A stretch of 64,000 nucleotides of DNA from Patescibacteria group bacterium (GCA_034003985.1 JAVEXP010000001.1:236190-300189), one strand, 5' to 3'; positions 1,894-52,425 are shown, counted from the first letter of the stretch. Notes: a model not told the origin generated them from the sequence alone. Program-made: numbers and translations.

Positions 1894-2700
1894 CTATTTA
1901 TCTTCCTTTTTTTCGGCTTTTTTAGATTTTTTTTCTTCCTTGGTTTCAACATCCTCGGCAGCTTCTTCAGTTTTGTCTTTTTTAGCCTTGACTTTCGGTT
2001 CGGCTTCACCCTGAACACTGCCGTCGATGAACTGGAAATGGTCAATCAAAATTTTATTCGCAGCCGACAAAGCTTGCTCCGGAGTGATTGATCCGTCGGT
2101 CTCAATTTCCAAAATCAGATTTTCGTAGTTGGTCATTTGGCCAACCCGAACATTTTCAATATAGAATCCAACATTTTTTACCGGCGTAAATACGGCATCA
2201 AGCAGGATAATGTCGGCCTCGGTGTTTTCTTTTTCCCGAGCTTCGGTCGGTAAATAGCCGCGGCCTTGCTCAACGATAATATCCATTTCCAACTCGGCCG
2301 ATTTGCTGGTTAGAGTGGCAATGACTTGATCGGTATTGATAACCTCAACATCACTGGTGGCTTGAATATCTTTGGCCGTAACTTTTTTTTCGCCACTGGC
2401 TTTCAGTTTTAAGCGAACCGGCTCTTCGTTGTGGACCTTGAACCGGACTTGTTTTAAATTTAAAGAAATTTCAACAACATCTTCCAAAACATTGTCGATG
2501 GTTGCAAATTCATGACTAACACCCTTAATTTTAAAAGCGGTGATAGCACCTCCGGGTAAAGAAGAAAGCAAAACTCGGCGGAGGGCGTTACCCAAAGTAG
2601 TTCCATAACCGGGATGGCAAGGCTGAATACTGACCTTGGATTGATTTTTTTCCTTGCTGGGCTTTATTTCGACTTTGTTTGGTAAAGGGATGTTTTGCAT
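1894..2700 (-). CDS. rpoA: DNA-directed RNA polymerase alpha subunit. The N-terminal assembly domain is present; the C-terminal DNA-binding domain is missing and replaced by a K/E-rich tail.
   Basis: Alpha-NTD motifs (GYGTTLGNALRRVLLSS, ILIDHFQ). The protein ends after ~225 aa of NTD with EAEPKVKAKKDKTEE...KKEDK. Sits in the canonical rpsD-rpoA-rplQ position. Confidence 0.88.
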   Translation of the reverse strand: MQNIPLPNKVEIKPSKEKNQSKVSIQPCHPGYGTTLGNALRRVLLSSLPGGAITAFKIKGVSHEFATIDNVLEDVVEISLNLKQVRFKVHNEEPVRLKLKASGEKKVTAKDIQATSDVEVINTDQVIATLTSKSAELEMDIIVEQGRGYLPTEAREKENTEADIILLDAVFTPVKNVGFYIENVRVGQMTNYENLILEIETDGSITPEQALSAANKILIDHFQFIDGSVQGEAEPKVKAKKDKTEEAAEDVETKEEKKSKKAEKKEDK

Positions 2701-2729
2701 AATTTTTACCCTCCTTAAAGTGGGATTAA

Positions 2730-3344
2730 TTATTTTGAATAAAATTCGACGATGAGTCGGGGGTTGAAAGTCTGTTCCATTTCTTGACTGGTTGGTTTAT
2801 TAACCACTTTGCCGCTGCGATTTTTGAGATCCAGGTGCAGCCAAATTGGCGTTTGGTATTTTTCCAGTCTTTTCTCCAAATCCTCGAATAATTTTGATTT
2901 AAATTTGTTGTCTTTAATGGTTATTTCGTCTTTGGGTTTGACTTGATAAGACGGGATGGTCACCCGTTTATTATTGACCAAGAAGAAACCGTGGTTGACC
3001 ATTTGGCGGGCCTGGCGTCTGGTTTTGGCAAAGCCAAGGCGGTAAATAACATTGTCGAGTCTCATCTCCAATAGTTGTTGGAGAATTTCGCCGGTATCGC
3101 CTTTTTTGGCAATCGCCTTTTTATAATAATTGGCAAACTGTTTTTCCATAATGCCGTAAGTCAGGCGGGCAATTTGTTTTTCGCGCAACTGGGTGCCGTA
3201 TTCGCTTGGCCGGCCTTGACGTTTGGGACCGTGGATTCCGGCCGGGTAGCTGCGACGGCCAATAATATTTTTTTCACCCTGACTCAAATTAACACCATAA
3301 CGGCGGGAAGCTTTAGTGATTTTCTTTTTAGGAATTTTAGCCAT
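2730..3344 (-). CDS. rpsD: 30S ribosomal protein S4
   Basis: N-terminal ...RRYGVNL... and an S4 RNA-binding domain; 204 aa. Confidence 0.92.
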   Translation of the reverse strand: MAKIPKKKITKASRRYGVNLSQGEKNIIGRRSYPAGIHGPKRQGRPSEYGTQLREKQIARLTYGIMEKQFANYYKKAIAKKGDTGEILQQLLEMRLDNVIYRLGFAKTRRQARQMVNHGFFLVNNKRVTIPSYQVKPKDEITIKDNKFKSKLFEDLEKRLEKYQTPIWLHLDLKNRSGKVVNKPTSQEMEQTFNPRLIVEFYSK

Positions 3345-8003: not shown

Positions 8004-10604
8004 TTATTTGATGATAATTTTTTCTTTATTGATGTCAACTTTGATTTTTTTGTTTGAAATAATTTTGTTTTCAATTATCTTTATAGCCAGCTCATCCAAA
8101 ATTAAATTTTGAATCAATCTTTTCAGCGGTCTGGCGCCATAAATTGGATTAAATCCTTTTTGGGCCAAATAATTTTTGAGAGCTTCGGTAAAAGTTAGTT
8201 CAATTTGTTTTTTGGTTAAGCGACTGCCAACACTGGCCAGCTGAAGATCAACAATTTGTTTAATTTCTTTTTCGGTCAATGCGTGGAAAGTGATTATTTC
8301 GTCAATCCGGTTGAGGAATTCCGGCTTGAAAGTTTTATGAAGGATTTCGTTTATCTTTTTTTCCATTTCTTCTTGGCTGATGATGTCATTTTTCTTTTTA
8401 TCTGAAAATCCCAATGAATATTCTTTAATCACTTCACTGCCTAAATTGGAGGTCATTATAATGATTGTATTCTTGAAGTTTATTTTTCGGCCTTTGGCAT
8501 CGGTAAGTTGACCGTCATCAAGAACTTGCAGCAAGATATTAAAAACATCAAGATGAGCTTTTTCGATTTCATCAAATAGAATTATGGCGTATGGCCGGCG
8601 GCGGATTATTTCGGAAAGTTGGCCGCCTTCTTCGTAGCCAATATAGCCGGGTGGCGAACCAATCATTTTGGAGACGCTGTGTTTTTCCATATATTCGGAC
8701 ATATCCAGTCGAACTAACGATTTTTCGTCATTAAACATCGCACTCGCCAGCGCTTTAGCCGTTTCGGTTTTGCCGACGCCAGTTGGCCCCAAGAAAATGA
8801 ACGAACCGATTGGCCTATTTTCTTCGGCAATGCCCGCTCGTGATCGCCTGACGGCGTTGGCAATCGCTTTAATCGCTTGAGTCTGCCCCACTACCCTTTT
8901 GCTAAGCTCATTTTCAAGTTTGGCTAGCTTTTGACTTTCACTTTCTAGCATTTTAGAAACCGGAATACCGGTCCAGCGGGCGACCACCGCGGCAATATCT
9001 TCGGGCGTTACTTCTTCTTTGAGAATTTTTTGATCCTTTTGAATTTCCGCTAGTTTGGCGGAAGTGGCCTTGGTCTGTTTTTCAAGTTCAGGAATTTTGC
9101 CATATTTTATTTCGGCGACTTTATCCAATTCTCCTCGCCGCTCGGCAATGTCGGCCTCGACTTTCAATTGATCAATTTTATTTTTGGCTTCTTGAATTTC
9201 TTTGATTAGATTCTTTTCGTTTTGCCAGTGAATCTCGATTTGATTGCTTTTTTCTTTTATGTCGGCCAGCTCTTTTTCCAGATTTTTTAGCCGGGCTGCC
9301 GAAGATTCGATTTTTTCTTTTTTAAGAGCCTGTTTGGCGATTTCCAGCTGGGTAATTTTTCGTTTTAAAACATCAAGCTCATCAGGCATGGAATCAATTT
9401 CCATTCTGATGGCGGAAGTGGCTTCGTCAATCAAGTCAATGGCTTTGTCAGGTAAAAACCGGTCGGTAATGTAACGGCTGGACAATTCAACGGCCGAAAC
9501 AATGGCGTTGTCGGTAATTTTAACTCCATGATGAATTTCGTATTTTTCTTTAATCCCGCGCAGAATGGCGATGGCATCTTCGGTGGACGGTTCAGTGACA
9601 TAAACCGGTTGGAATCTTCTTTCTAAAGCGGCGTCTTTTTCAATGTATTTTTGATATTCTTTGAGCGTAGTCGCGCCAATGGCGTGTAAGGTGCCTCGGG
9701 CCAAAGCCGGTTTTAACATATTGGCGGCATCAACCGCGCCTTCGGCGCCGCCGGCACCGACAACCAAATGCAGTTCATCAATAAACAAAATGATTTGACC
9801 GGATGCTTCTTCAACCTCTTTCAGAACCGCTTTAAGCCGTTCTTCAAATTCTCCGCGAAATTTAGCACCCGCCACCAGACTGCCGATATCTAAAGAAATC
9901 AAATCCTTATTTTTTAAACTTTCAGGGACATCGCCATCGGCAATTCGTTGGGCTAAGCCCTCGGCAATAGCCGTTTTGCCGGTACCTGGTTCGCCAATTA
10001 ACACCGGATTATTTTTGGTTTTGCGAGACAAAACCTGCATTACCCTTCGAATTTCGGTATTGCGGCCGATAATCGGATCAAGTTTTCCAATTTTAGCCAG
10101 TCGAGTTAAATTAATGCCATAGCGCGATAAAGATTGATATTTACTTTCCGGTTCGGGGTCGATAATTCGATGATTGCCTCGAATGTCTTTTAAAACTTTT
10201 AAAACCTGATCATATTTGATATTTAAAATACCAGAGACTTCCGATTGAATCTCCAGCAGGGCAAGTAAAAAATGTTCGGTGCTGATGTATTGGTCATCCA
10301 TTTTTTTGGCTTCGGTTTCGGCTTGTGCCAGAATTTTTTGCAGAGTGGAGCTTAATTGTTGAGTCAGGTTATTTCCACTGCTTACGGGCGGAATTTTCAA
10401 AAGTTCGTTTTCCAATTGGCCTAGTAACTCATTAATGTTGACTTCTAATTTTTTGAGAACGGCGCCGACAATACCTTCAGGCTGTTGGATGAGGGCCAAT
10501 AATAAATGCGGGCTGGAAATCAGCTGTTGGTTTTTTTGGCCGGCAATGGCAATTGTTTTTTGCAAAGCTTCCTGAGCCTTGAGGGTTAATTGCTGAGGAT
10601 TCAT
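8004..10604 (-). CDS. clpB: Chaperone ClpB (two AAA+ modules with a coiled-coil middle domain)
   Basis: [15 protein letters not shown] and [16 protein letters not shown] Walker A motifs; long M-domain coiled coil. Probable ATG start at MNPQQLTL (10604). The ORF-track start at 10634 is a GTG inside the CIRCE element. Confidence 0.9.
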
Positions 10605-10627: not shown

Positions 10628-10654
10628 TTAGCACTCTAATACATAGAGTGCTAA
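10628..10654 (-). promoter_or_regulatory. CIRCE element (HrcA operator) TTAGCACTC-N9-GAGTGCTAA upstream of clpB
   Basis: Exact match to the CIRCE consensus with a 9-nt spacer (TAATACATA), immediately downstream of a consensus promoter. Confidence 0.85.
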
Positions 10655-24568: not shown

Positions 24569-24595
24569 GTAATTGTTTTTCTTTCCTCGCCACAG

Positions 24596-24666
24596 CTCGG
24601 AGGCCAGGGCTCGAACCTGGATTGACGGGACCAAAACCCGCTGTCCTACCATTAGACGACCTCCGA
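24596..24666 (-). tRNA. tRNA-Gln (anticodon TTG)
   Basis: Manual fold: acceptor TCGGAGG/CCTCCGA, D-arm GTCT/GGAC, anticodon stem GCGGG/CCCGT with loop TTTTGGT, T-arm CCAGG-TTCGAGC-CCTGG, discriminator G. CCA not encoded. Confidence 0.8.
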
Positions 24667-26394: not shown

Positions 26395-26467
26395 TGCGGA
26401 TGTAGTTCAGCTGGTAGAACGTCTGCTTCCCAAGCAGAAGATCGCGGGTTCGAATCCCGTCATCCGC
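26395..26467 (+). tRNA. tRNA-Gly (anticodon CCC)
   Basis: Acceptor GCGGATG/CATCCGC, D-arm GTTC-AGCTGGTA-GAAC, anticodon stem TCTGC/GCAGA with loop TTCCCAA, T-arm GCGGG-TTCGAAT-CCCGT. Confidence 0.85.
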
Positions 26468-26476
26468 TTTGACCCG

Positions 26477-26550
26477 CGCCAACGTAGCTCAGCTGGTAGA
26501 GCAGTCCCTTCGTAAGGGAAAGGTCGTGAGTTCGAATCTCACCGTTGGCT
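26477..26550 (+). tRNA. tRNA-Thr (anticodon CGT)
   Basis: Acceptor GCCAACG/CGTTGGC, D-arm GCTC-AGCTGGTA-GAGC, anticodon loop TTCGTAA, T-arm GTGAG-TTCGAAT-CTCAC. Closely parallels E. coli tRNA-Thr(CGT). Confidence 0.85.
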
Positions 26551-26558
26551 CTGATTGA

Positions 26559-28746: not shown

Positions 28747-28822
28747 TGGTGGGACGTGAGGGATTCGAACCCCCGACCATTGGCTTAAAAGGCCACTGCT
28801 CTACCAACTGAGCTAACGTCCC
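28747..28822 (-). tRNA. tRNA-Lys (anticodon TTT), CCA encoded
   Basis: Acceptor GGGACGT/ACGTCCC, D-arm GCTC-AGTTGGTA-GAGC, anticodon loop CTTTTAA, T-arm GGGGG-TTCGAAT-CCCTC, 3' ACCA. A terminator-like hairpin CGGCCAAAAATTTCCGGCCG+T6 lies downstream on the minus strand (~28604-28630). Confidence 0.85.
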
Positions 28823-33735: not shown

Positions 33736-35217
33736 TTAAAGAAACTTTGAAATATAATAGTCAACTGGCGCAAAATCATCAGTCAAAATCGGTATATCTT
33801 GGTTGATAAGAATATCTTGATTAAACCAATATTTTAATAATTCTTTTTGATTGTCATTAGCCCTTTCGATCAGTTTTTCCCTGGTGATTAGTTCATTGTT
33901 TTTAGAAGCGATGAGAATAATATTTTGGATTTCAGCTGGTTTTGCTTGATTTGGATTTTGGGTGGTAAAAATGTAGACTTGAGGAAAATACCGTTTTAAA
34001 GTCTTATATTCAGCTTGTAAAAATAGTGACTTTTGACCGCTTAGTGAAGAAGCTAAATTTAGAATAAAAACGCCGTTATCGTTTAAAGAATCGGATATTT
34101 TCGAGATTGCTTCCAAACTGGTCAGTTGAAAAGGAATTGAAACATAAGAGTTAAAAACATCACCATAAATTACATCAAATTTTTTTTGATTTTTATTTAA
34201 GAAAATTCTGGCGTCTTGATGAATAATATTTAAGCGATGGTTGGGTTTGAGGTCAAAATAAGAAGAAGCGATTTTGGTTAATTCCGGATCAATTTCAACC
34301 ACTGTCATTTGTGCTTCGGAGTAACGGTTAAGGAAGTCCAAAGGTGCGACATAAGCCCCGCCACCCAAAGTCAGGGCGCTGTTGATTTGGGGAACAAATA
34401 AATTATCAAGTCGATAAAGTTTATGATAACTGGCAAAAATTTCGTCAGCATCTAAATATTTAATGCTGTGGGATTCGGTTGCCAAATACAACGCGCGAAT
34501 CGGCCGGTTGGTTTTTGGATCGACAACATCAATTATTTTGATATGATTATAAGCACTGTCACCTTCAAAGACGATCTGGGCAGCAGTTGACTTGGGAATT
34601 AACCAAAGAACTAAAACCAAAATTAAGGTGATAATTTTGATAATTTTGTGACCGGCGATTAAAGAAATGAGAATAAGTGTAAAACTCAAACCATATAAAA
34701 TTTGACTACTACCGAAAGTCGGGATTAAATAAAAGCCTGCTAAAAAGGTGCCGGCAATACTGCCAATCGTGGAAAGAGCATATAAATTTCCGGCAACGCC
34801 CCCAGAATCTTTGACATTTTCCACTTTTAATCTAACGGCGTAAGGCGAAACCATTCCCAAAATAACGCTTGGCGGACCAAACAGAATCAGGGCGGCTGTC
34901 ACGGAACCAAATTTTACCCCTAGATTCGCAGTAAAATTTAGGATAGGAGTTTTAATGATGGTAATTAACAAAATCGTCAAGCCGGCGATTAGTAAAATTC
35001 TAGCCAAAAAATTCAAGTTGGGTGATTTTTTAGAAAATTGACCACCTAAATAATAGCCCAGGCTTAAAGCTCCCATGACAATACCAATAAGTGATGACCA
35101 AACAAAGATGGAGGTTCCTAGGATTGGCGCTAAAATTCGAGAGCCAATTAATTCTAAAACCATAACAATCGCGCCGCTACTAAAAATAATTATTTCTAAT
35201 TTGTTAGGAATTTTCAT
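33736..35217 (-). CDS. Membrane-anchored spermidine-synthase-fold protein (N-terminal polytopic domain fused to an aminopropyl/methyltransferase-like domain)
   Basis: ~7 TM N-terminal half. The C-terminal half has a spermidine-synthase-like LTLGGGAYVAPLDFLNRY...VVEIDPEL...IIHQDARIFL...FDVIYGDVFN pattern. Confidence 0.55.
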   Translation of the reverse strand: MKIPNKLEIIIFSSGAIVMVLELIGSRILAPILGTSIFVWSSLIGIVMGALSLGYYLGGQFSKKSPNLNFLARILLIAGLTILLITIIKTPILNFTANLGVKFGSVTAALILFGPPSVILGMVSPYAVRLKVENVKDSGGVAGNLYALSTIGSIAGTFLAGFYLIPTFGSSQILYGLSFTLILISLIAGHKIIKIITLILVLVLWLIPKSTAAQIVFEGDSAYNHIKIIDVVDPKTNRPIRALYLATESHSIKYLDADEIFASYHKLYRLDNLFVPQINSALTLGGGAYVAPLDFLNRYSEAQMTVVEIDPELTKIASSYFDLKPNHRLNIIHQDARIFLNKNQKKFDVIYGDVFNSYVSIPFQLTSLEAISKISDSLNDNGVFILNLASSLSGQKSLFLQAEYKTLKRYFPQVYIFTTQNPNQAKPAEIQNIILIASKNNELITREKLIERANDNQKELLKYWFNQDILINQDIPILTDDFAPVDYYISKFL

Positions 35218-35223
35218 TTTTGT

Positions 35224-35697
35224 TTAATCTAAAAAATAAGAAACTTGATCGTTAATTTTTATTTGATGTTTTTTAACAAAACCAGCATTAACTTCTAAAA
35301 CATGGTCAATTGGTTCGGGCGGATTAACGACAGCCGGTCTTTCGTTATTGGTTGGCGGTTGGATATTTTCAGTAGTGGCAATTACCTTGTTATTACTGAT
35401 CCAAATAAAATCCAAGGGAAATCTCATTCCTTTCATCCAAAATGTAACATCGGTTTTGGGTGGATAAGCAAATAGCATGCCGTTATTTTCTTTCAGGAAT
35501 ACTCGATTGGCAAGACCCATGGTTTGATCTTGGGAAATTTCAACTGTTACTTTAAGGTTGTTGATGATCAAATATGGTTTTGTTTGAAAACCTTTGTCAG
35601 TAAAAATAATAAAGGAAATAATAATAATTATTCCTCCAACGGCCGGCACCAGAAATTTAAATTTCATGATGTTTGCGGTGATGTATTGATAAAACAA
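35224..35697 (-). CDS. DUF192-family protein
   Basis: N-terminal TM/signal. GMLFAYPPKTDVTFWMKGMRFPLDFIWISNNKV...HVLEVNAGF matches the DUF192 (COG1430) conserved core. Confidence 0.6.
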   Translation of the reverse strand: MFYQYITANIMKFKFLVPAVGGIIIIISFIIFTDKGFQTKPYLIINNLKVTVEISQDQTMGLANRVFLKENNGMLFAYPPKTDVTFWMKGMRFPLDFIWISNNKVIATTENIQPPTNNERPAVVNPPEPIDHVLEVNAGFVKKHQIKINDQVSYFLD

Positions 35698-36688
35698 GGC
35701 TGGCTAAAACAATCATAAAGACTGCCAAAACCACTAAAGCCAGAACTTTACCCTTGGAATGGAGAAATAGCGATATGGTGCCGGAAACGGCGGTAATAAA
35801 ATAAAGGAAAATGACAGTTTGGCGGTGGGATAGGCCGAGATCTAAAAGCCGGTAGTGAAGATGACGACGGTCACCAATGGCTGGCGATTTTTTAAACCAT
35901 AGGCGTTGAACGATTACCCAGGCGACATCTAGAATTGGGATACCCATAATTAGTAAGGCCGTGGCAATTTTTGACCCTGAAATTATTGAAAGGGTACCTA
36001 ATAAAAAACCACATAAAACACTGCCACCTTCGCCCAAAAAAATTTTAGCCGGATGCCAATTAAAAATTAAAAAACCAAGAGTTGATCCGGCTAAAATTAA
36101 GGCCAAAATGGAGGTGCCTGATAGCGAAACATCCCAGTAAAGACTGACTATAAAAATAATAATTGAACCAATGGCTGTTATTCCAGAAGTAAGAGCGTCA
36201 AGGCCATCAAGGAATTTAGTGGTATAAATCATTCCCATTATCCAAAAAAATGTCGTGACCGTTCCCAAAAATACCGGAAATTCAATGATGCCGCCAAGCG
36301 GATTGGTAACAAAAAGAATTTTAGCCCCCGACAATAGTAAGGTGAGGGTCGCCAAGACGGGAAAAATTAACTGCTGGTGGGGTTTGATGTTGTATTTATC
36401 GTCCAATAATCCGCCGATAATCAAAATTAGTCCGCCGATTAAAATCGCGGTGATGTGATAATTGTTTATTTTACTGTCGTTAAGGTAACCGTTAAACCAA
36501 AATAGACCAGCGGTTAGACTAAAAGCGAGATAAATGGCCACACCGCCTAATAAAGGAGTTGGTCGCTTGTGGATTTTGCGCGGGGCAGGTAGATCAAAAA
36601 TCCCAAGCTTAGTGGCCAATATTTTAACAAGCAAGGTAAGACCAGTCGATAAAATAAAAGCAATACTTAGGGCGAATAAATAGATCAT
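35657..36688 (-). CDS. MraY/WecA-family polyprenyl-phosphate sugar-1-phosphate transferase
   Basis: 343 aa, ~10 TM. IFDLPAPRKIHKRPTPLLGGVAIY and DGLDALTSG motifs of the GT4 MraY/WecA family. Confidence 0.7.
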   Translation of the reverse strand: MIYLFALSIAFILSTGLTLLVKILATKLGIFDLPAPRKIHKRPTPLLGGVAIYLAFSLTAGLFWFNGYLNDSKINNYHITAILIGGLILIIGGLLDDKYNIKPHQQLIFPVLATLTLLLSGAKILFVTNPLGGIIEFPVFLGTVTTFFWIMGMIYTTKFLDGLDALTSGITAIGSIIIFIVSLYWDVSLSGTSILALILAGSTLGFLIFNWHPAKIFLGEGGSVLCGFLLGTLSIISGSKIATALLIMGIPILDVAWVIVQRLWFKKSPAIGDRRHLHYRLLDLGLSHRQTVIFLYFITAVSGTISLFLHSKGKVLALVVLAVFMIVLASLVLSIHHRKHHEI

Positions 36689-36689
36689 T

Positions 36690-39458
36690 TTAGATTTCCT
36701 TAGCTTTAATTACTTTTAGGCTGCCGACGGTTTCAACCAGGACGGTATCTCGCCTTTCAATTTTATTGGCTAGTAAATAGTTGGCCAAAGGATCTTGAAT
36801 TTTTTCTTGAATCAGCCTTCTTAATGGTCTGGCACCAAATTGCGGATCAAATCCTTGGCTGGCCAAGTCCGCCAGCGCTGTGGGCGTAATTTCAAGTTTG
36901 ATGCCTTTAGCCTCAAGATTACGCGCTACTTTATTGATCATTAATTGAGCAATTTTTTGAACATCTTCCAGTGACAATGGTTTAAATACAATTACCCCAT
37001 CAAATCGATTAAGAAATTCCGGCCGGAAATATTGGTTTAACTCACGATCCATTAATTGTTGCTTGGTCTGTTCAACACTAGTACCGTTTCTAATTTGTTC
37101 TTGAATGAAGGTTGATGCAGCGTTGGAAGTGGCGATAATAATGGCATTGGTGAAATCGACAGTCCGGCCGTTGTTGTCGGTTAAACGCCCATCTTCCATG
37201 ATTTGGAGAAATATATTAAGGATATCGGGATGAGCTTTTTCGATTTCATCCAACAAAATCAAAGAAAATGGATTTTTTCTTACCGCTTCAGATAAAAAAC
37301 CACCTTCCTCGCCATAGCCAGGAGGTGCGCCAATTAATCGATTGAGACTAGTTTTATCCTGGTATTCGGACATATCTAGTCTGATCATATTTTCCTGATC
37401 ACCAAAATAAACTTCCGCAACGGTTTTAGCCAACTCGGTCTTACCGACACCAGTTGGTCCAAGAAACAACAGATTAACAATCGGCCGGGAGAGGTCGCGC
37501 ATCTCCGCTCTGGCGCGACGCAAAGAAGAGGCAACCATCTCAACTGCTTCCACTTGGTCGACTACTCGCTGGTGGATCTTTTCTTCCAGATTGAGGAGTT
37601 TCTCCGACTCTTCCTTGGTTATTTCAGTCAACGGTATGTTAGTTTTTTGAGAAATTATCGCGGCAACATCATTTTCGTTAACGACACTATTTTTTCCTTT
37701 CTGATTGCGTACCGTCGTGGCGACCTCTTGAAGAACCTCGATCGCCTTTTCCGGAAGAAATCGGTCGTGTAAATAACGATCGGAAAGTAGAACCGTTTGA
37801 GCCACTGCGTCATAAGAAAAATATACTTGGTTTTGGTATTCAAAAGCCCCAACTTTAGATTCAACAATTTGAATCGCTTCGTTTCCGGAAACTTCCTGAA
37901 TTTCAATTTTTTCTAAAACATCATCAAGAGAACTCCGGCCTTCAACATAACGACGATAGTCACCGGGGGTAGAGGTCGCAATTACCAAAATTGTATTGGC
38001 CGCCAAGGTTTTGGCCAGTACATCCGCCAGATCAATACTACCTGGACGGCCGGAAGTAATGCCAACCATATTGTGAATGTCACCAATGTAAAGAACAATA
38101 TTGCCCGATCTTCTAATTTCGTTTAAAGCAAACATTAGTCGTTCCTGGGCTTCAGCCGGCGTAGCGCCGCTTACCAGTTTGGCGACGCTTAGACTGACTA
38201 GCCGTTTATCCTGAAGAAACTCCGGGACATCTTCTTCAACCATTCTTTGGACAATACCTTCAACAATGGTGTTTTTACCAACGCCAGGATTACCTACCAA
38301 AATGACACTGCGGCGAGTACCACCATGCATAATACTAAGAATATCATCAATCTCCTTTTCCCGACCGATACAAGGCATTAGATAACCGGCCTGAGCCAGT
38401 AAGGTCATATCTTGACTGAAAGCGTCCAAAACCGGCGTGGCAATGGCGGTCATGGAACGATTCATGGTACTACTTGGTTTCAAACTGGCCCGTTGGCGAA
38501 ATTTTTGCCAATTGGCTCGGAGTTGTTTTTTGATTCTTAACCAAGCGATGACATTGCTTATTTTATCTGAATCAATATCTAAATCGTACAGCAGCTCTTT
38601 AACATCATTTTCTTGACTCGCCAAAGCTTCTAGGATTTCAGTGACCTCAACTTTTTTCTGTCGCAATTGATATGACAAAAAATAAGATTCAAAAATGATT
38701 TTTTCGGCCAACTCGCCAAAAATTACCGGCATAGTGCCGCCGGCTGGCTGGCGACCAAGAATACTACGAATTTTATTTTTTAAAGTTGTAAACGGTACTC
38801 CCAAGCGGCTAAATATTATTTGAATTTGCTGATCAATCAGTAGTGATATTAACAGATGAATCGGAAAAACCGCCTGGTCTTTATATTTAGCCGCTAATTC
38901 CCAGGAACGATTGACTATTTGTCTGGCTTCGAAAGTAAAATACTTGGCAATGTCAATTTGTTTGCCGCGTGGCAACCGTTTGGCCTGCTCCCAGCTTAGC
39001 TGATCAAAAGCGGTTGGTTTTAATTCGTACGATTTTTTTGGAATATGTCTGATTTTTTCGATATCTCTTTGAAAACGGTAATAAAGGTAGGTATCGGTTA
39101 ATAATGAAAACCAAAAAATAACCAATTGCCAGCTGTGATATCGGTAGAATACCGATATGGGTAAATGGTTAGTGGTATAGATAACCAATTGCCAAACCAA
39201 CATTACCAACCCCAGCGCGCCGAATAAAAACAAAGTTATATTTATTAAGTTTTTTATAAAAAGCACTAATTTATGACGAGCAATGGTTGTAGCGCTGATT
39301 GGCTCACCCCAATAGAGCAATTCTTGTCCGGTCCAGGCCCTTAGAAAAAATCCGTCGCATTGTTCACATTTTTTATCATTAATAATCCCCTGCCCCTGAC
39401 AATCGGGACAAGTTAAAAATTGAAGCCGGGGATGATGATTTTTCGATTCTTGATTCAT
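36690..39458 (-). CDS. Membrane-anchored ClpC/ClpB-like AAA+ protein with an N-terminal DnaJ-type zinc finger, TM helices, Clp-N repeats, a degenerate first ATPase domain and a canonical second ATPase domain
   Basis: N-terminal CPDCQGQGI...CEQCDG. Two hydrophobic segments (aa ~65-120). D1 Walker A GNPGVGKNT and Walker B LYIGDIH (non-canonical). D2 [13 protein letters not shown] and LILLDEIEKAH (canonical). Confidence 0.75.
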   Translation of the reverse strand: MNQESKNHHPRLQFLTCPDCQGQGIINDKKCEQCDGFFLRAWTGQELLYWGEPISATTIARHKLVLFIKNLINITLFLFGALGLVMLVWQLVIYTTNHLPISVFYRYHSWQLVIFWFSLLTDTYLYYRFQRDIEKIRHIPKKSYELKPTAFDQLSWEQAKRLPRGKQIDIAKYFTFEARQIVNRSWELAAKYKDQAVFPIHLLISLLIDQQIQIIFSRLGVPFTTLKNKIRSILGRQPAGGTMPVIFGELAEKIIFESYFLSYQLRQKKVEVTEILEALASQENDVKELLYDLDIDSDKISNVIAWLRIKKQLRANWQKFRQRASLKPSSTMNRSMTAIATPVLDAFSQDMTLLAQAGYLMPCIGREKEIDDILSIMHGGTRRSVILVGNPGVGKNTIVEGIVQRMVEEDVPEFLQDKRLVSLSVAKLVSGATPAEAQERLMFALNEIRRSGNIVLYIGDIHNMVGITSGRPGSIDLADVLAKTLAANTILVIATSTPGDYRRYVEGRSSLDDVLEKIEIQEVSGNEAIQIVESKVGAFEYQNQVYFSYDAVAQTVLLSDRYLHDRFLPEKAIEVLQEVATTVRNQKGKNSVVNENDVAAIISQKTNIPLTEITKEESEKLLNLEEKIHQRVVDQVEAVEMVASSLRRARAEMRDLSRPIVNLLFLGPTGVGKTELAKTVAEVYFGDQENMIRLDMSEYQDKTSLNRLIGAPPGYGEEGGFLSEAVRKNPFSLILLDEIEKAHPDILNIFLQIMEDGRLTDNNGRTVDFTNAIIIATSNAASTFIQEQIRNGTSVEQTKQQLMDRELNQYFRPEFLNRFDGVIVFKPLSLEDVQKIAQLMINKVARNLEAKGIKLEITPTALADLASQGFDPQFGARPLRRLIQEKIQDPLANYLLANKIERRDTVLVETVGSLKVIKAKEI

Positions 39459-39460
39459 AG

Positions 39461-39838
39461 TCAGCTAATTACCCAACTAAAATTAGCCCAAATTTGATTG
39501 ACGATTAAAATCGGCAGCCCAAGGTAAAATAATAATCCCAGAAAAACAACAATAACCCAAATCGCCAAAATAATTGATCTGACAATTATTTGAACCAATC
39601 GAGCAAAAAAACTTATCAATCTTCCTTCAATATCGTATTGACCAAACATGGGGGTAAAAATATTTTTTATCCAAACGGCAATCCCAAGTCTTTGGCTTTG
39701 ATTTTTGATGGAAAACAAGCAGCCTCTTAAAGTTTTTAATAGCCCTTTAGAATACCACCAAACAGGCCAATATAAAAAATCACCAATCAAGTCCACAATA
39801 ACGAATTTAGCCGGAGAATAAACAATATTTTTTTTCAT
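39461..39838 (-). CDS. Small hypothetical membrane protein, first gene of the ClpC-like operon
   Basis: 125 aa, two hydrophobic helices; stop is 2 nt before the ClpC-like start. Confidence 0.45.
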   Translation of the reverse strand: MKKNIVYSPAKFVIVDLIGDFLYWPVWWYSKGLLKTLRGCLFSIKNQSQRLGIAVWIKNIFTPMFGQYDIEGRLISFFARLVQIIVRSIILAIWVIVVFLGLLFYLGLPILIVNQIWANFSWVIS

Positions 39839-39905
39839 ATTTTATATATTATACCACAAAAGCTCCAAATAAAAAAAGCCGATCCCTCCCGAAGAAAGAT
39901 CGGAC

Positions 39906-40031
39906 CTAGCCGCGCTCAAGTTTGCGCAAGATCTTGCGCAGGAGTCGCAGGATAGGATTTTTGGTGTGCCGGCTGATGCGACGGTACAGATACCGCCGGT
40001 GATTATGATGATGGTGCTGCTGTTGACTCAT
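39906..40031 (-). CDS. Possible 41-aa His/Arg-rich peptide (MSQQQHHHHNHRRYLYRRISRHTKNPILRLLRKILRKLERG)
   Basis: ATG preceded by AAAGGGGGA RBS (minus strand). High-GC island; divergent from the 40308 peptide gene. Manual read; below the ORF-track cutoff. Confidence 0.3.
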   Translation of the reverse strand: MSQQQHHHHNHRRYLYRRISRHTKNPILRLLRKILRKLERG

Positions 40032-40190
40032 TTGTCCCCCTTTCTGCCGAATCGGCTTCAAGGTTTTGGTTGTGGGTAATGGGGGTCAAATTTTTATCTG
40101 GTTTAAGGATCTCTCTAATTTAAAAAAATGTCAAGTCCGATATCGTAGTTTTAGAAGTGATAAAAAAATATTTATTATATCATTTTGATC

Positions 40191-40224
40191 AAACCTGTCA
40201 AGTATCCATACTCTTGACAGGTTT
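40191..40224. promoter_or_regulatory. Perfect 12-bp inverted repeat AAACCTGTCAAG-N10-CTTGACAGGTTT overlapping the -35 of the 40308 gene promoter; candidate operator
   Basis: The right half-site contains TTGACA (40214-40219); TAAAAT -10 at 40236-40241 (16-nt spacer); ~65 nt upstream of a strong-RBS small ORF. Confidence 0.5.
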
Positions 40225-40307
40225 GCGACGATTATTAAAATGCCCTCATTATTTGGTTACTGAGACCAAATAAAAACAGGGAATAAGAACGAGGAGGAAA
40301 ATCCAAG

Positions 40308-40490
40308 ATGAAGATTAGTGAGAGAGTAATTTGGTTGCTGATCCTGGGGTTGTTTTGTCTGGCGGGTCCAGCGCTGGCAAATCAAGCAGCTGGAGAGGCC
40401 GGTTTCAGTCTGGCTTACTGCGTCATTGTGGCATCTACCTTATTTACTCCGATTGGCCTAAATTATTTGCTTAGTAAGTATAATAACTAA
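40308..40490 (+). CDS. 60-aa signal-peptide-bearing hydrophobic peptide (bacteriocin-like or small secreted/membrane peptide)
   Basis: Strong RBS GAGGAGG 8 nt before ATG; own promoter with palindromic operator. N-terminal MKISERVIWLLILGLFCLAGPALA then 36 aa NQAAGEAGFSLAYCVIVASTLFTPIGLNYLLSKYNN. Rho-independent terminator follows. Confidence 0.6.
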   Translation: MKISERVIWLLILGLFCLAGPALANQAAGEAGFSLAYCVIVASTLFTPIGLNYLLSKYNN

Positions 40491-40520
40491 GCAAAATAGA
40501 GGCCGATGAATGTGGATCAG

Positions 40521-40550
40521 CAACCCGGTGTGCCGTCGGGTTGTTTTTTA
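40521..40550 (+). terminator. Rho-independent terminator CAACCCGG-tgtgcc-GTCGGGTTG + T6
   Basis: Perfect GC-rich stem followed by TTTTTT, 30 nt after the 40308..40490 stop. Confidence 0.7.
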
Positions 40551-40620
40551 ATTGAGATAAATTATATTTACTAGTTGTTACAAATTTATAATATTTTTAG
40601 CATTGATTGATATTTTTTTA

Positions 40621-41523
40621 TTACCAACAAATTCTGACTTCTTCTTTAATTATTTCTTTTAAATATTCTTTTGTTTCGGCAAGATCGCCAATTTTATCAA
40701 TTAGACCTTTTTCCAATGCCATTTGCCCAAGCATACTGGAACCGTCCGCCAACTTTTTGACCTTTTCAATATCCAATTTTCTGTTTTCAGAAACAGTCTT
40801 AATAAAGTTGTTATATATTATTTCGGTATCTCTAGCCAGAAGCTCTTTTTCTTCGTTGGACAAAGACTTGTTGGGGTTGCCAGTATCTTTAAATTTTCCA
40901 AAGCTAATTTGGTTGTAAGTTAACCCTTCGCTTTGATTTTGGCGGACATTATCTACATACGACATCGTCACTCCAATGCCACCAATGTCAGAATTTTCAG
41001 AGGCAAAAATAATGTCAGCACCGGTAGCCGCCCAGTAGGCGGCGGATACCCCACTTTCTCTGATTAAAACAACGGTTGGCTTTTTAGCTTTTTTTAAAGC
41101 TTCAGCTACTTCCTCAGCGGCTACCGGGTAGCCGCCGTAAGAATCGATTTCAATCAAAATGGCCTTGATATTGTCGTCTTTATCCGCATCGGTAATCCAG
41201 TAGACGATATTTTCCGATGCGGTTTGGTCTTCGAGCGGGCTTCCGTCTTCGTCAAAGTTGTAAGGGGGTATATAAGTTATCAGCTCACCGCGAAGTTCGA
41301 TGCCATAGACATTGCAACTTTCTTCTTCGATATACTCATTAGCCTGATATTCGTTAATTTTTTCCTCATTAAATGAATGGTTTCCAAACTGCCAGGCAAA
41401 TTCATTTTTGATTGTTATAAAAGATGCTGTGATAATCAAAAAAATTGTGATTATTTTTAAAATTTTTAAATCATGATTGCCGTCCCATAGCTTGAAACTA
41501 ATATTTTTTTTGTTTTCAATCAT
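40621..41523 (-). CDS. sppA: Signal peptide peptidase SppA (S49 family, 36K type)
   Basis: N-terminal TM; IDSYGGYPVAAEEV and GVSAAYWAATGADIIFA S49 motifs; 300 aa. Confidence 0.8.
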   Translation of the reverse strand: MIENKKNISFKLWDGNHDLKILKIITIFLIITASFITIKNEFAWQFGNHSFNEEKINEYQANEYIEEESCNVYGIELRGELITYIPPYNFDEDGSPLEDQTASENIVYWITDADKDDNIKAILIEIDSYGGYPVAAEEVAEALKKAKKPTVVLIRESGVSAAYWAATGADIIFASENSDIGGIGVTMSYVDNVRQNQSEGLTYNQISFGKFKDTGNPNKSLSNEEKELLARDTEIIYNNFIKTVSENRKLDIEKVKKLADGSSMLGQMALEKGLIDKIGDLAETKEYLKEIIKEEVRICW

Positions 41524-52041: not shown

Positions 52042-52425
52042 CAGTCTGAGTAAACCAGATGGTCGCTCGTTTAGAAATAAGCGAGAGGAAAGTCCGAACA
52101 CCACAAAAAATGGCAGCTCCTAACGGGAGCCGAGTATAAATAAGAGAGTAAAAGTTCTTAAGCCTTTTATTCTGTTATCAAGCTTAGGGCAAGTGCAACA
52201 GAAAATACACCGCCTAAGTCCGCTTGACGGAACGGTAAGGTTGAAATCGTGAGGTAAGAGCTCACGGCCGACAGACTGGCAACAGTCGGGTTGGTAAACT
52301 CCTGCCTGGTGCAATGCCAAATTCGGTAGGCAGCTTGATCCCGATGGCAACATCGGGACTAGATAGATGACCATCATCCCAATCCAAAGGGATACAAAAT
52401 TCGGCTTATCGGTTTGCTCAGACAA
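52042..52425 (+). ncRNA. rnpB: RNase P RNA (bacterial type)
   Basis: P1 pairing GTCTGAGTAAACC (52044-56) with GGTTTGCTCAGAC (52411-23). Conserved AGGAAAGTCCGAAC, CAGAAAATACACCGCC, GGTTGAAATCGTGAGGTAAGAGCTCAC, ACAAAATTCGGCTTA and GGTAAACTCC blocks. Confidence 0.85.

Follow-up and report, generated by a model that had tools for sequence, protein, structure and literature searches.

A predicted membrane-anchored Hsp100 paralogue with a degenerate and an intact ATPase module in Patescibacteria

A 64,000-nt stretch of a Patescibacteria group bacterium genome (GCA_034003985.1, JAVEXP010000001.1:236190-300189; hereafter the window) contains, on its minus strand, a five-gene block that includes a gene for a 922-aa ATPase of the Clp/Hsp100 type. 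Homologues of this Clp-like protein are called 'AAA family ATPase' or 'ATP-dependent Clp protease ATP-binding subunit' in the databases, and the initial annotation of the window took it to be probably a membrane-tethered unfoldase or chaperone dedicated to an envelope-biogenesis operon. Is it a protease partner, an unfoldase or something else? From N- to C-terminus, the protein is made up of a DnaJ-like zinc ribbon, a two-helix hairpin, a Clp N-domain, a degenerate first ATPase module (D1) and a canonical second one (D2) (Table 1). The membrane-anchored Hsp100 architecture predicted from these sequences and the family-wide pattern of motif loss would surprise AAA+ specialists; the function that we attach to them is a proposal.

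Architecture and ATPase modules of the Clp-like protein

Motif counts below refer to 113 close full-length homologues and to 85 representatives (84 cluster representatives plus the window protein). AlphaFold models were built from family alignments and reached a predicted local distance difference test score (pLDDT) of 84.6 for the N-terminal 345 residues and 88.5 for the full length, the latter with a predicted template-modelling score (pTM) of 0.78.

The zinc finger that had been noticed at the start of the protein is present as CPDCQGQG...CEQCDG at residues 17-36, with its four cysteines kept in 105-108/113 close homologues. Among the representatives, 65/85 have two CxxC pairs and 15/85 have none. 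When the N-terminus was scanned alone, the best Pfam match was DnaJ_CXXCXGXG (PF00684; 24 bits, E 4.6e-5; gathering score, 32.7 bits), and the anti-TRAP model NF058604 gave a sub-threshold 22.6 bits. The single pair of CxxC motifs would be enough for one putative zinc site, and the module was modelled as beta strands at residues 13-16, 39-42 and 47-49. Downstream of it lie the two hydrophobic helices of the initial annotation, a strong one (~70-92) and a weaker one (110-127). Kyte-Doolittle hydropathy peaked at 2.29 at residues 71-89 (family mean of 2.35 for the first helix) and reached 1.56 in the second segment, and averaging over the family gave two stretches free of K/R (70-92 and 110-127) with conserved basic positions on their flanks. 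AlphaFold modelled helices 56-96 and 110-135 as a hairpin (pLDDT 81-95), the second helix of which carries the conserved motif F115-W116-x-S118-x3-D122-x-Y124-x2-Y127-R128. Hydropathy and the structure models therefore both back the proposed membrane tethering, with the hairpin as a predicted anchor of N-in/C-in topology, i.e. with both ends cytoplasmic.

The region after the hairpin was correctly recognised as Clp-N. It matched PF02861 at 21.8 bits (cut-off 20.7 bits), and its eight-helix model found the N-terminal domain of ClpC1 in Foldseek (8ibp; E 3.6e-6, template-modelling (TM) score 0.80, ~140 columns) as well as further ClpC and ClpB N-domains (E ~4e-6, TM ~0.8). The remainder consists of tandem AAA+ modules and a D2-small domain (PF00004, PF17871, PF07724 and PF10431). 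This D1-D2 body superposed on a substrate-engaged ClpC protomer (9gi1_e) with a TM of 0.89 and a root-mean-square deviation of 3.5 Å over 587 columns at 42% identity, and on ClpC protomers overall with a TM of 0.88-0.89.

D1 has lost most of what an ATPase module needs. The initial annotation had read an Asn for the Thr/Ser of its Walker A and IGD in its Walker B, and concluded that D1 is probably a pseudo-ATPase. In a phmmer alignment to Bacillus subtilis ClpC, both motifs align column for column with their counterparts, and this register is therefore correct. The Mg-binding Asp of Walker B is lost in the window protein. At the position of the catalytic Glu, Asp (52), Asn (52) and Glu (3) were counted among the close homologues and Asn (35) and Asp (29) among the representatives, and a canonical DE was seen in only 3/113 and 1/85. 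Beyond what had been noticed, the pore loop of D1 lacks the tyrosine and falls short of that of ClpC by one residue, and both arginine fingers are lost through the change of the ClpC pair ERRF to DDVL. Across the representatives, a D1 pore-loop aromatic was found in 4/85 and RR arginine fingers in ~9-10/85, mainly in the clade nearest the ClpB outgroup. Despite these losses, D1 is strongly conserved: the mean top-residue frequency of its large subdomain was 0.66 (Clp N-domain, 0.48; D2, 0.79), 25/180 columns were at least 95% conserved, including the P-loop glycines G389, G392 and G394, and its five-strand AAA+ core was intact in the AlphaFold model. Conservation of this kind argues, from sequence comparison, that D1 is a pseudo-ATPase under purifying selection and not a decaying one. 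The D1 lid has no M-domain insertion, since ClpC residues 412-463 are without a counterpart; the site spans 38 aa in the window protein and 35-41 aa in all members, compared with 161 aa in the ClpB encoded elsewhere in the window.

The description of D2 as canonical also held. Walker A, Walker B (ILLDEIEKAH), the arginine finger R818 and sensor-2 R877 are all present, and these motifs were found in 113/113 close homologues and 83-85/85 representatives (R818 in 113/113 and 83/85). The pore loop followed a different course. Compared with the D2 loop of the window's ClpB, that of the window protein keeps the Tyr, misses the next hydrophobic residue and is 2 residues shorter. Over the family, an aromatic is present in 42/113 close homologues and 15/85 representatives, and the loops without it are short and rich in Gly, Ser and Pro. 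In a neighbour-joining tree rooted with the window's ClpB, the aromatic is scattered, since its distribution over 16 positive tips (15 representatives and the ClpB outgroup) requires no fewer than 15 changes, and GAPPG[YF] at the canonical position occurs in only ~9 representatives. The term 'unfoldase' therefore fits the family poorly. As for a ClpP-binding loop in D2, no IGF/LGF is present in the window protein, and no docking loop was found in 107/113 close homologues and 84/85 representatives, in which this region has a constant 33-35 aa.

Because the D2 ATPase site is invariant while its pore-loop aromatic is not maintained, remodelling appears likelier than threading. We give an even chance to the reading that the conserved output of the family is ATP-driven remodelling, assembly or release of a membrane or membrane-proximal partner, and not processive threading.

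A search of 5.8 billion proteins returned full-length homologues of ~920 aa with 47-70% identity and 98-100% coverage. Those with an organism name are labelled Patescibacteria, Parcubacteria, Buchananbacteria or simply 'bacterium', with one exception labelled Xanthomonadaceae. A profile of the family-specific N-terminal 345 residues, searched against 1.84 billion proteins, matched 193 cluster representatives (50% identity) at E ≤ 1e-30. It also detected relatives in no fewer than 231 species-representative genomes, and the record titles that are informative point to Buchanan-, Falkow-, Magasanik-, Kuenen- and Uhrbacteria. We conclude that the Clp-like family is restricted to the Patescibacteria (candidate phyla radiation). 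A wider distribution was considered and rejected, since the titles 'uncultured Gammaproteobacteria', 'Binatia', 'Vicinamibacterales' and 'Xanthomonadaceae' are probably due to mislabelling or mis-binning. Such foreign titles are carried by loci L011, L013, L018, L022 and others, L065 and L072, and by protein P0052. The 'Binatia' (L065) and 'Gammaproteobacteria' (L011) loci have the same order of small gene, transferase, DUF192 gene and rplU as their relatives, and the 'Vicinamibacterales' locus (L072) stops inside the Clp-like gene. Full-text literature searches brought up no description of such a Clp, either membrane-anchored or from Patescibacteria, and as far as these searches reached, the family is unpublished.

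A small membrane partner, the proposed mechanism and its alternatives

Genomic context was surveyed by tblastn with the proteins of the window neighbours against 80 species-level loci, and each count is given out of the loci with enough flank. The most constant neighbour is a small membrane protein gene, which directly precedes the Clp-like gene, in the same orientation, in 73/76 loci. In the window, reading of the junction confirmed that the small gene directly precedes the Clp-like gene (TGA stop, 2 nt, ATG). The small partner had no match in Pfam, NCBIfam or PADLOC, and its 102 homologues (108-143 aa) are all without a Pfam domain and named only 'hypothetical protein'; where an organism is named, it is a member of the Patescibacteria or an unclassified bacterium. 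They share the motifs P-x-W-W-Y-x-x-G and P-M-F-G-Q-Y-D-x-x-G-R-x-I-S-F-F-x-R followed by ~40 hydrophobic residues, and P25, W27, W28, G32, P63, M64, S76 and R80 are kept in 78-79/79 sequences. Only three loci, L049, L059 and L070, have no detectable small partner. Two of these (L049 and L070) are in the same metagenome-assembled genome (MAG), JAZDMY01, which thus carries two Clp-like copies, and the three may represent a partner-less paralogous subclade. Charged residues are conserved on both proteins: D122 of the Clp-like protein (94/113) is inside the second hydrophobic helix (residues 110-127, 39078-39131), and R80 (79/79) and R87 (62/79) of the partner are at the start of its hydrophobic tail (residues 73-87). 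On the basis of these positions, D122 could form an intramembrane or interfacial charge pair with R80/R87.

We propose the following mechanism. Since the arginine finger of D2 works in trans, the Clp-like protein would form a ring, which by comparison with other Hsp100s is probably hexameric. Its N-terminal hairpins would hold the ring at the cytoplasmic face of the membrane and, since the anchor is N-terminal, the N-domain/D1 face would point towards the membrane, where the ring would complex with the small partner. D1 would then be a scaffold ring that does not hydrolyse ATP but may keep nucleotide bound, and D2 the sole motor, which would need neither ClpP nor M-domain-mediated coupling to DnaK. 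Such a remodeller would resemble Torsin or Bcs1 more than ClpB. The window protein has Tyr715 and might still pull on a polypeptide to a limited extent. The presumably co-transcribed WecA-like transferase would be the best candidate for a client or co-worker, although not an obligatory one.

The same architecture could instead belong to a threading dislocase or unfoldase of the classical kind that acts on membrane proteins. Placed beneath the membrane, the ring would use its D2 pore loop to draw embedded or mis-inserted proteins through the pore into the cytoplasm, in the manner of FtsH or Msp1 but without a protease. We consider this rather unlikely. An N-terminal anchor does turn the entry (N/D1) face to the membrane, D2 is fully intact as a motor, the D1-D2 body resembles protomers of ClpC engaged with substrate, and the window protein keeps Tyr715 in GAPPGYG. 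However, the D2 aromatic is missing from 70/85 representatives and from most close homologues and its presence is scattered over the tree, the loops that keep the Tyr are without the hydrophobic residue of GYVG and 2 residues shorter, and the gripping loop of D1 is also gone.

Compatible with either mechanism is a role as a dedicated regulator or assembly factor of the WecA-like transferase and the envelope genes downstream, as in the initial annotation. In the window, the genes are spaced by 1-2 nt, and the transferase gene (GT4 in the following) begins one nucleotide after the Clp-like gene (TAA stop, 1 nt, ATG). In related genomes, GT4 is downstream on the same strand within 500 nt in 41/64 loci and within 5 kb in 52/64. 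Where present, it starts no more than ~35 nt from the Clp-like stop in about half of the cases. One locus (P0034/L001; 1/77) has an in-frame Clp-like::GT4 fusion. The transferase scored 100 bits against PF00953 (cut-off 27; 1.8e-28), with 110.8 bits against the wecA model TIGR02380 (cut-off 326) and a score below the mraY equivalog cut-off. Its DD and LDGLDGL motifs occur in 56/56 syntenic homologues and all three of DD, LDGLDGL and HLH in 55-56/56, and intact catalytic motifs suggest a working enzyme. The transferase is not singled out by its conservation, however, because rplU (47/55) and recR (41/55, opposite strand), for which a functional connection is implausible, are equally constant neighbours. 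In 12/64 loci, there is no GT4 within 5 kb and unrelated genes (PurD-like, recombinase, UvrB-like or GlyRS-like) are downstream; these are heterogeneous, and no alternative constant partner was found among them. The rest of the block is less constant still, with the DUF192 gene downstream in 29/55 loci and the spermidine-synthase fusion, confined to the closest relatives, in 9/55. No recurrent fusion was found beyond the single case in 77 loci. As GT4 is no better conserved than rplU, dedication to an envelope operon seems to us rather improbable.

That the protein is an ordinary ClpC/ClpA-type ClpP partner or a back-up ClpB disaggregase of diverged sequence is the least credible explanation and can be set aside: although its best matches are ClpC in the PDB (501 bits, phmmer) and the ClpB and ClpA NCBIfam models, and it bears the database name of a Clp protease subunit, it stays below every equivalog cut-off, an M-domain is absent from all members and a ClpP loop from nearly all, D1 is catalytically dead, a membrane anchor is predicted and a true CIRCE-controlled ClpB is encoded in the same window.

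Several points weigh against the remodelling reading that we prefer. The window protein itself keeps Tyr715, as do about one third of its close relatives, and threading may be real in the sub-lineage that keeps it. Absence of the aromatic is negative evidence, and other loop residues might grip a substrate. The second hairpin helix is moderately hydrophobic and has a conserved Asp, and could be interfacial, not membrane-spanning. With regard to the transferase as client, the constancy of rplU and recR means that the GT4 link may be mere conserved gene order in small genomes, and the single fusion may have arisen from an error in assembly or sequencing. That the protein inserts into the membrane, forms an oligomer, hydrolyses ATP and interacts with its partner is in each case what we infer.

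A more specific version of the remodelling reading, which we offer tentatively and hold to be unlikely in full, is a hexameric Hsp100-derived membrane machine with its partner, embedded by at least 12 membrane helices and with one dead and one live ring, which would carry out non-threading, ATP-driven assembly, gating or remodelling of an envelope-synthesis complex, for example at the WecA-like initiating transferase. It would be the counterpart of Torsin or Bcs1 in reduced, episymbiotic Patescibacteria. More generally, in a large family that is membrane-anchored, has one live ring, cannot dock ClpP, has no M-domain and mostly lacks gripping loops, the textbook soluble threading scaffold, Hsp100/Clp, would have been re-purposed for another mechanical output, and the family would provide AAA+ mechanistic work with a natural, evolution-made 'D1 trap' variant. 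Patescibacteria have minimal genomes and poorly understood envelopes, and a two-gene membrane module that is nearly universal in several of their classes (Buchanan-, Magasanik-, Falkow-, Uhr- and Kuenenbacteria) offers a handle on their envelope or membrane-protein biology. Current 'Clp protease ATP-binding subunit' names are misleading for this family.

The operon and other features of the window

All five open reading frames (ORFs) of the block are on the minus strand at the coordinates first assigned to them, and the assignments of the three downstream genes as WecA-type, DUF192 and spermidine-synthase-fold were borne out by family matches (Table 1). For DUF192, nothing functional was found in the literature. 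The Glu of FLGEGGS in the transferase (E220) is invariant in 56/56 syntenic homologues; WecA, TagO and MraY have an Asp at the equivalent position (FMGDxGS).

Table 1. Coordinates of the Clp-like operon, of the domains and motifs of the Clp-like protein, and of clpB in the window
Feature	Position (nt)	Strand	Basis or remark
Small membrane protein gene	39461-39838	minus	125 aa
Clp/Hsp100-like ATPase gene	36690-39458	minus	922 aa, class-I Hsp100 paralogue
WecA/TagO-like GT4 gene (polyprenyl-phosphate N-acetylhexosamine-1-phosphate transferase, PNPT)	35657-36688	minus	PF00953 (Glycos_transf_4)
DUF192 protein gene, N-terminal hydrophobic segment (residues 15-33)	35224-35697	minus	PF02643, 6.6e-24
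Fused MFS-like membrane/spermidine-synthase-fold protein gene	33736-35217	minus	NF037959, 282.7 bits, 5.1e-84; PF01564, 6.8e-9
Extended -10 promoter-like element TGGTATAAT	39848-39856	minus	read directly from sequence
Zinc ribbon, residues 13-50	39309-39422	minus	CxxCxGxG...CxxCxG
Helical hairpin, residues 56-135	39054-39293	minus	hydrophobic cores 70-92, 110-127
Clp N-terminal domain fold, residues 156-325	38484-38993	minus	PF02861, Foldseek
D1 module, residues 346-620	37599-38423	minus	alignment to ClpC
D1 Walker A GNPGVGKNT	38268-38294	minus	ClpC: GEPGVGKTA
D1 Walker B VLYIGDIHN	38070-38096	minus	IVLYIGDIH vs ClpC IILFIDELH
D1 pore loop GATPAEAQ, without aromatic	38136-38174	minus	GAT-PAEAQER vs ClpC GTKYRGEFEDR
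D1 arginine-finger site LDDVL	37905-37931	minus	LDDVLE vs ClpC LERRFQ
D2 AAA+ module and ClpB_D2-small, residues 656-912	36723-37493	minus	PF07724, 1.6e-58; PF10431, 2.6e-25
D2 pore loop GAPPGYGEEGG, shortened	37299-37331	minus	keeps Tyr715
D2 ClpP-loop site IRNGTSV, without [ILV]G[FL]	37059-37112	minus	RNGTS vs ClpC YVGFN
clpB	8004-10604 (or to 10634 from upstream GTG)	minus	1245 bits vs ClpB equivalog TIGR03346 cut-off 1232
CIRCE TTAGCACTC-N9-GAGTGCTAA (TTAGCACTCTAATACATAGAGTGCTAA), 0 mismatches	10628-10654		directly upstream of clpB

Upstream of the small gene, the extended -10 element TGGTATAAT is separated from the ATG by 9 nt and preceded by a terminator-like hairpin (39903-39879, minus). 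Since it lies just past this hairpin, the operon probably has its own promoter; TGGTATAAT is its likely candidate, and the leader would then be very short or absent. A scan of the window for the controlling inverted repeat of chaperone expression (CIRCE) found none near the Clp-like operon.

The ~780 nt upstream of the operon (39839-40620) contain no long ORF. On the minus strand of this gap there is a perfect TTGACA-16-TATAAT promoter (40201-40174) and a tiny, very basic His/Arg-rich ORF (39906-40061); on the plus strand, a promoter-like site (40214-40241) is followed by a 60-aa ORF (40308-40490), the start of which resembles a signal peptide, and by a terminator-like hairpin (40519-40545). 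No Rfam family reached its gathering score in the gap, and the tiny ORFs were not conserved among 84 related loci (best E 0.28). Beyond the gap, between tgt and the operon, is an S49 (SppA-like) peptidase gene (40621-41523, minus), for which tblastn gave no equivalent in the neighbourhood of the Clp-like gene in any of 84 related loci. There, tgt often immediately precedes the small gene, and the S49 gene and the gap look like a lineage-specific insertion.

The initial annotation had also reported a CIRCE-regulated clpB at 8004-10604. Its coordinates, its identity as ClpB and the CIRCE were all confirmed, but the gene is on the minus strand and not on the plus strand. The CIRCE is the only one in the window (none in 100 shuffles). 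It overlaps the alternative GTG at 10634, which makes the ATG at 10604 the likelier start of clpB. The encoded protein has a full-length M-domain, yet also an LGF tripeptide in a longer D2 loop near residue 728, exactly at the site of the ClpP-docking loop of ClpC/ClpA; canonical ClpB is without this loop. Among the 120 closest homologues, nearly all of those named being called ClpB and assigned to Patescibacteria or unclassified bacteria, [LIFM]GF is found at this site in 113 (LGF 63, IGF 25, FGF 21 and MGF 4). To judge from this motif, patescibacterial 'ClpB' proteins may be natural ClpB/ClpC hybrids able to dock ClpP, which would explain why the membrane paralogue needs no ClpP loop. An approximate E. 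coli ClpP probe found no ClpP within the window. In a related locus (L061, ~2451-3020), a ClpP gene 62% identical to this probe is located ~5 kb upstream of the Clp-like gene, and hence the lineage has ClpP; another locus (L069) gave a weak ClpP match.

The window further contains a bacterial class A RNase P RNA (52047-52424, plus, 230 bits) and four tRNA genes (24595-24666, 26396-26551, 28747-28822) for Gln-TTG, Gly-CCC, Thr-CGT and Lys-TTT. A defence system was considered for the Clp-like locus and rejected: PADLOC gave only generic partial matches to D2 (PDC-M37B, 136 bits; DolB, 118 bits) and none to the partner, and the synteny is with housekeeping genes.

Comparison with known systems

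The closest relatives by sequence and structure are ClpC, ClpA and ClpB, with which the Clp-like protein shares the Clp N-domain fold, the tandem AAA+ modules, the D2-small domain and identical D2 catalytic residues. It differs from them by the added zinc ribbon and membrane hairpin, by the loss in D1 of the Walker A Thr, the Walker B DE, the pore-loop Tyr and the arginine fingers, and by a shortened D2 pore loop that is usually without the aromatic. In contrast to ClpB and ClpC, it has no M-domain, and in contrast to ClpA and ClpC, no ClpP loop. In agreement, it remained below the NCBIfam equivalog cut-offs for ClpB (TIGR03346, 623.5 vs 1232.1) and ClpA (TIGR02639, 544.2 vs 993.15). Two competent rings, as in class-I Hsp100s, are not found here, with D1 reading GKN, IGD and DDVL. 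Together with the true ClpB elsewhere in the window, these differences support the earlier view of a specialised paralogue and not a general ClpC.

Torsins are Clp/Hsp100 relatives without aromatic pore loops that have membrane cofactors, and a non-threading mechanism has been proposed for them (PMC5425593). Like Torsins, the Clp-like family has an ATPase module related to Hsp100 D2, an N-terminal hydrophobic segment and a membrane partner, and most of its members are without the aromatic (70/85 representatives, although not the window protein with its Tyr715). Unlike Torsins, which have a single AAA+ module and receive their arginine finger from LAP1 or LULL1, the D2 of the Clp-like protein has its own (83/85) and is accompanied by a degenerate D1 in the same polypeptide; Torsins also face the ER lumen, whereas the Clp-like protein is predicted to be cytoplasmic. 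The likeness would thus be one of mechanism, by analogy, with no specific common descent implied.

A degenerate D1 is also known from the apicoplast ClpM of Plasmodium, a ClpC paralogue that lacks a ClpP-binding motif and, in its D1, canonical Walker A/B motifs; a hydrophobicity analysis found no particularly hydrophobic stretch in it (bioRxiv 10.64898/2026.05.20.726455). ClpM is plastid-encoded and has neither a zinc ribbon nor a small membrane partner, both of which are found with the Clp-like protein.

With regard to the N-terminus, ClpE of Firmicutes is an Hsp100 with a zinc module before its ATPase rings, and is a soluble protein in which both D1 and D2 are active and which has an M-domain as well as a ClpP loop. 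The Clp-like protein also has a zinc motif, but of DnaJ type (CxxCxGxG) and followed by a membrane hairpin and a Clp N-domain; its D1 is dead and its ClpP loop absent. In FtsH, Bcs1 and Msp1, an N-terminal anchor keeps an AAA+ ring at the membrane with its entry face to the bilayer, which is the arrangement predicted here. These proteins belong to other AAA+ clades, however, and have a single AAA module without a Clp N-domain or D2-small domain, and FtsH additionally carries a protease.

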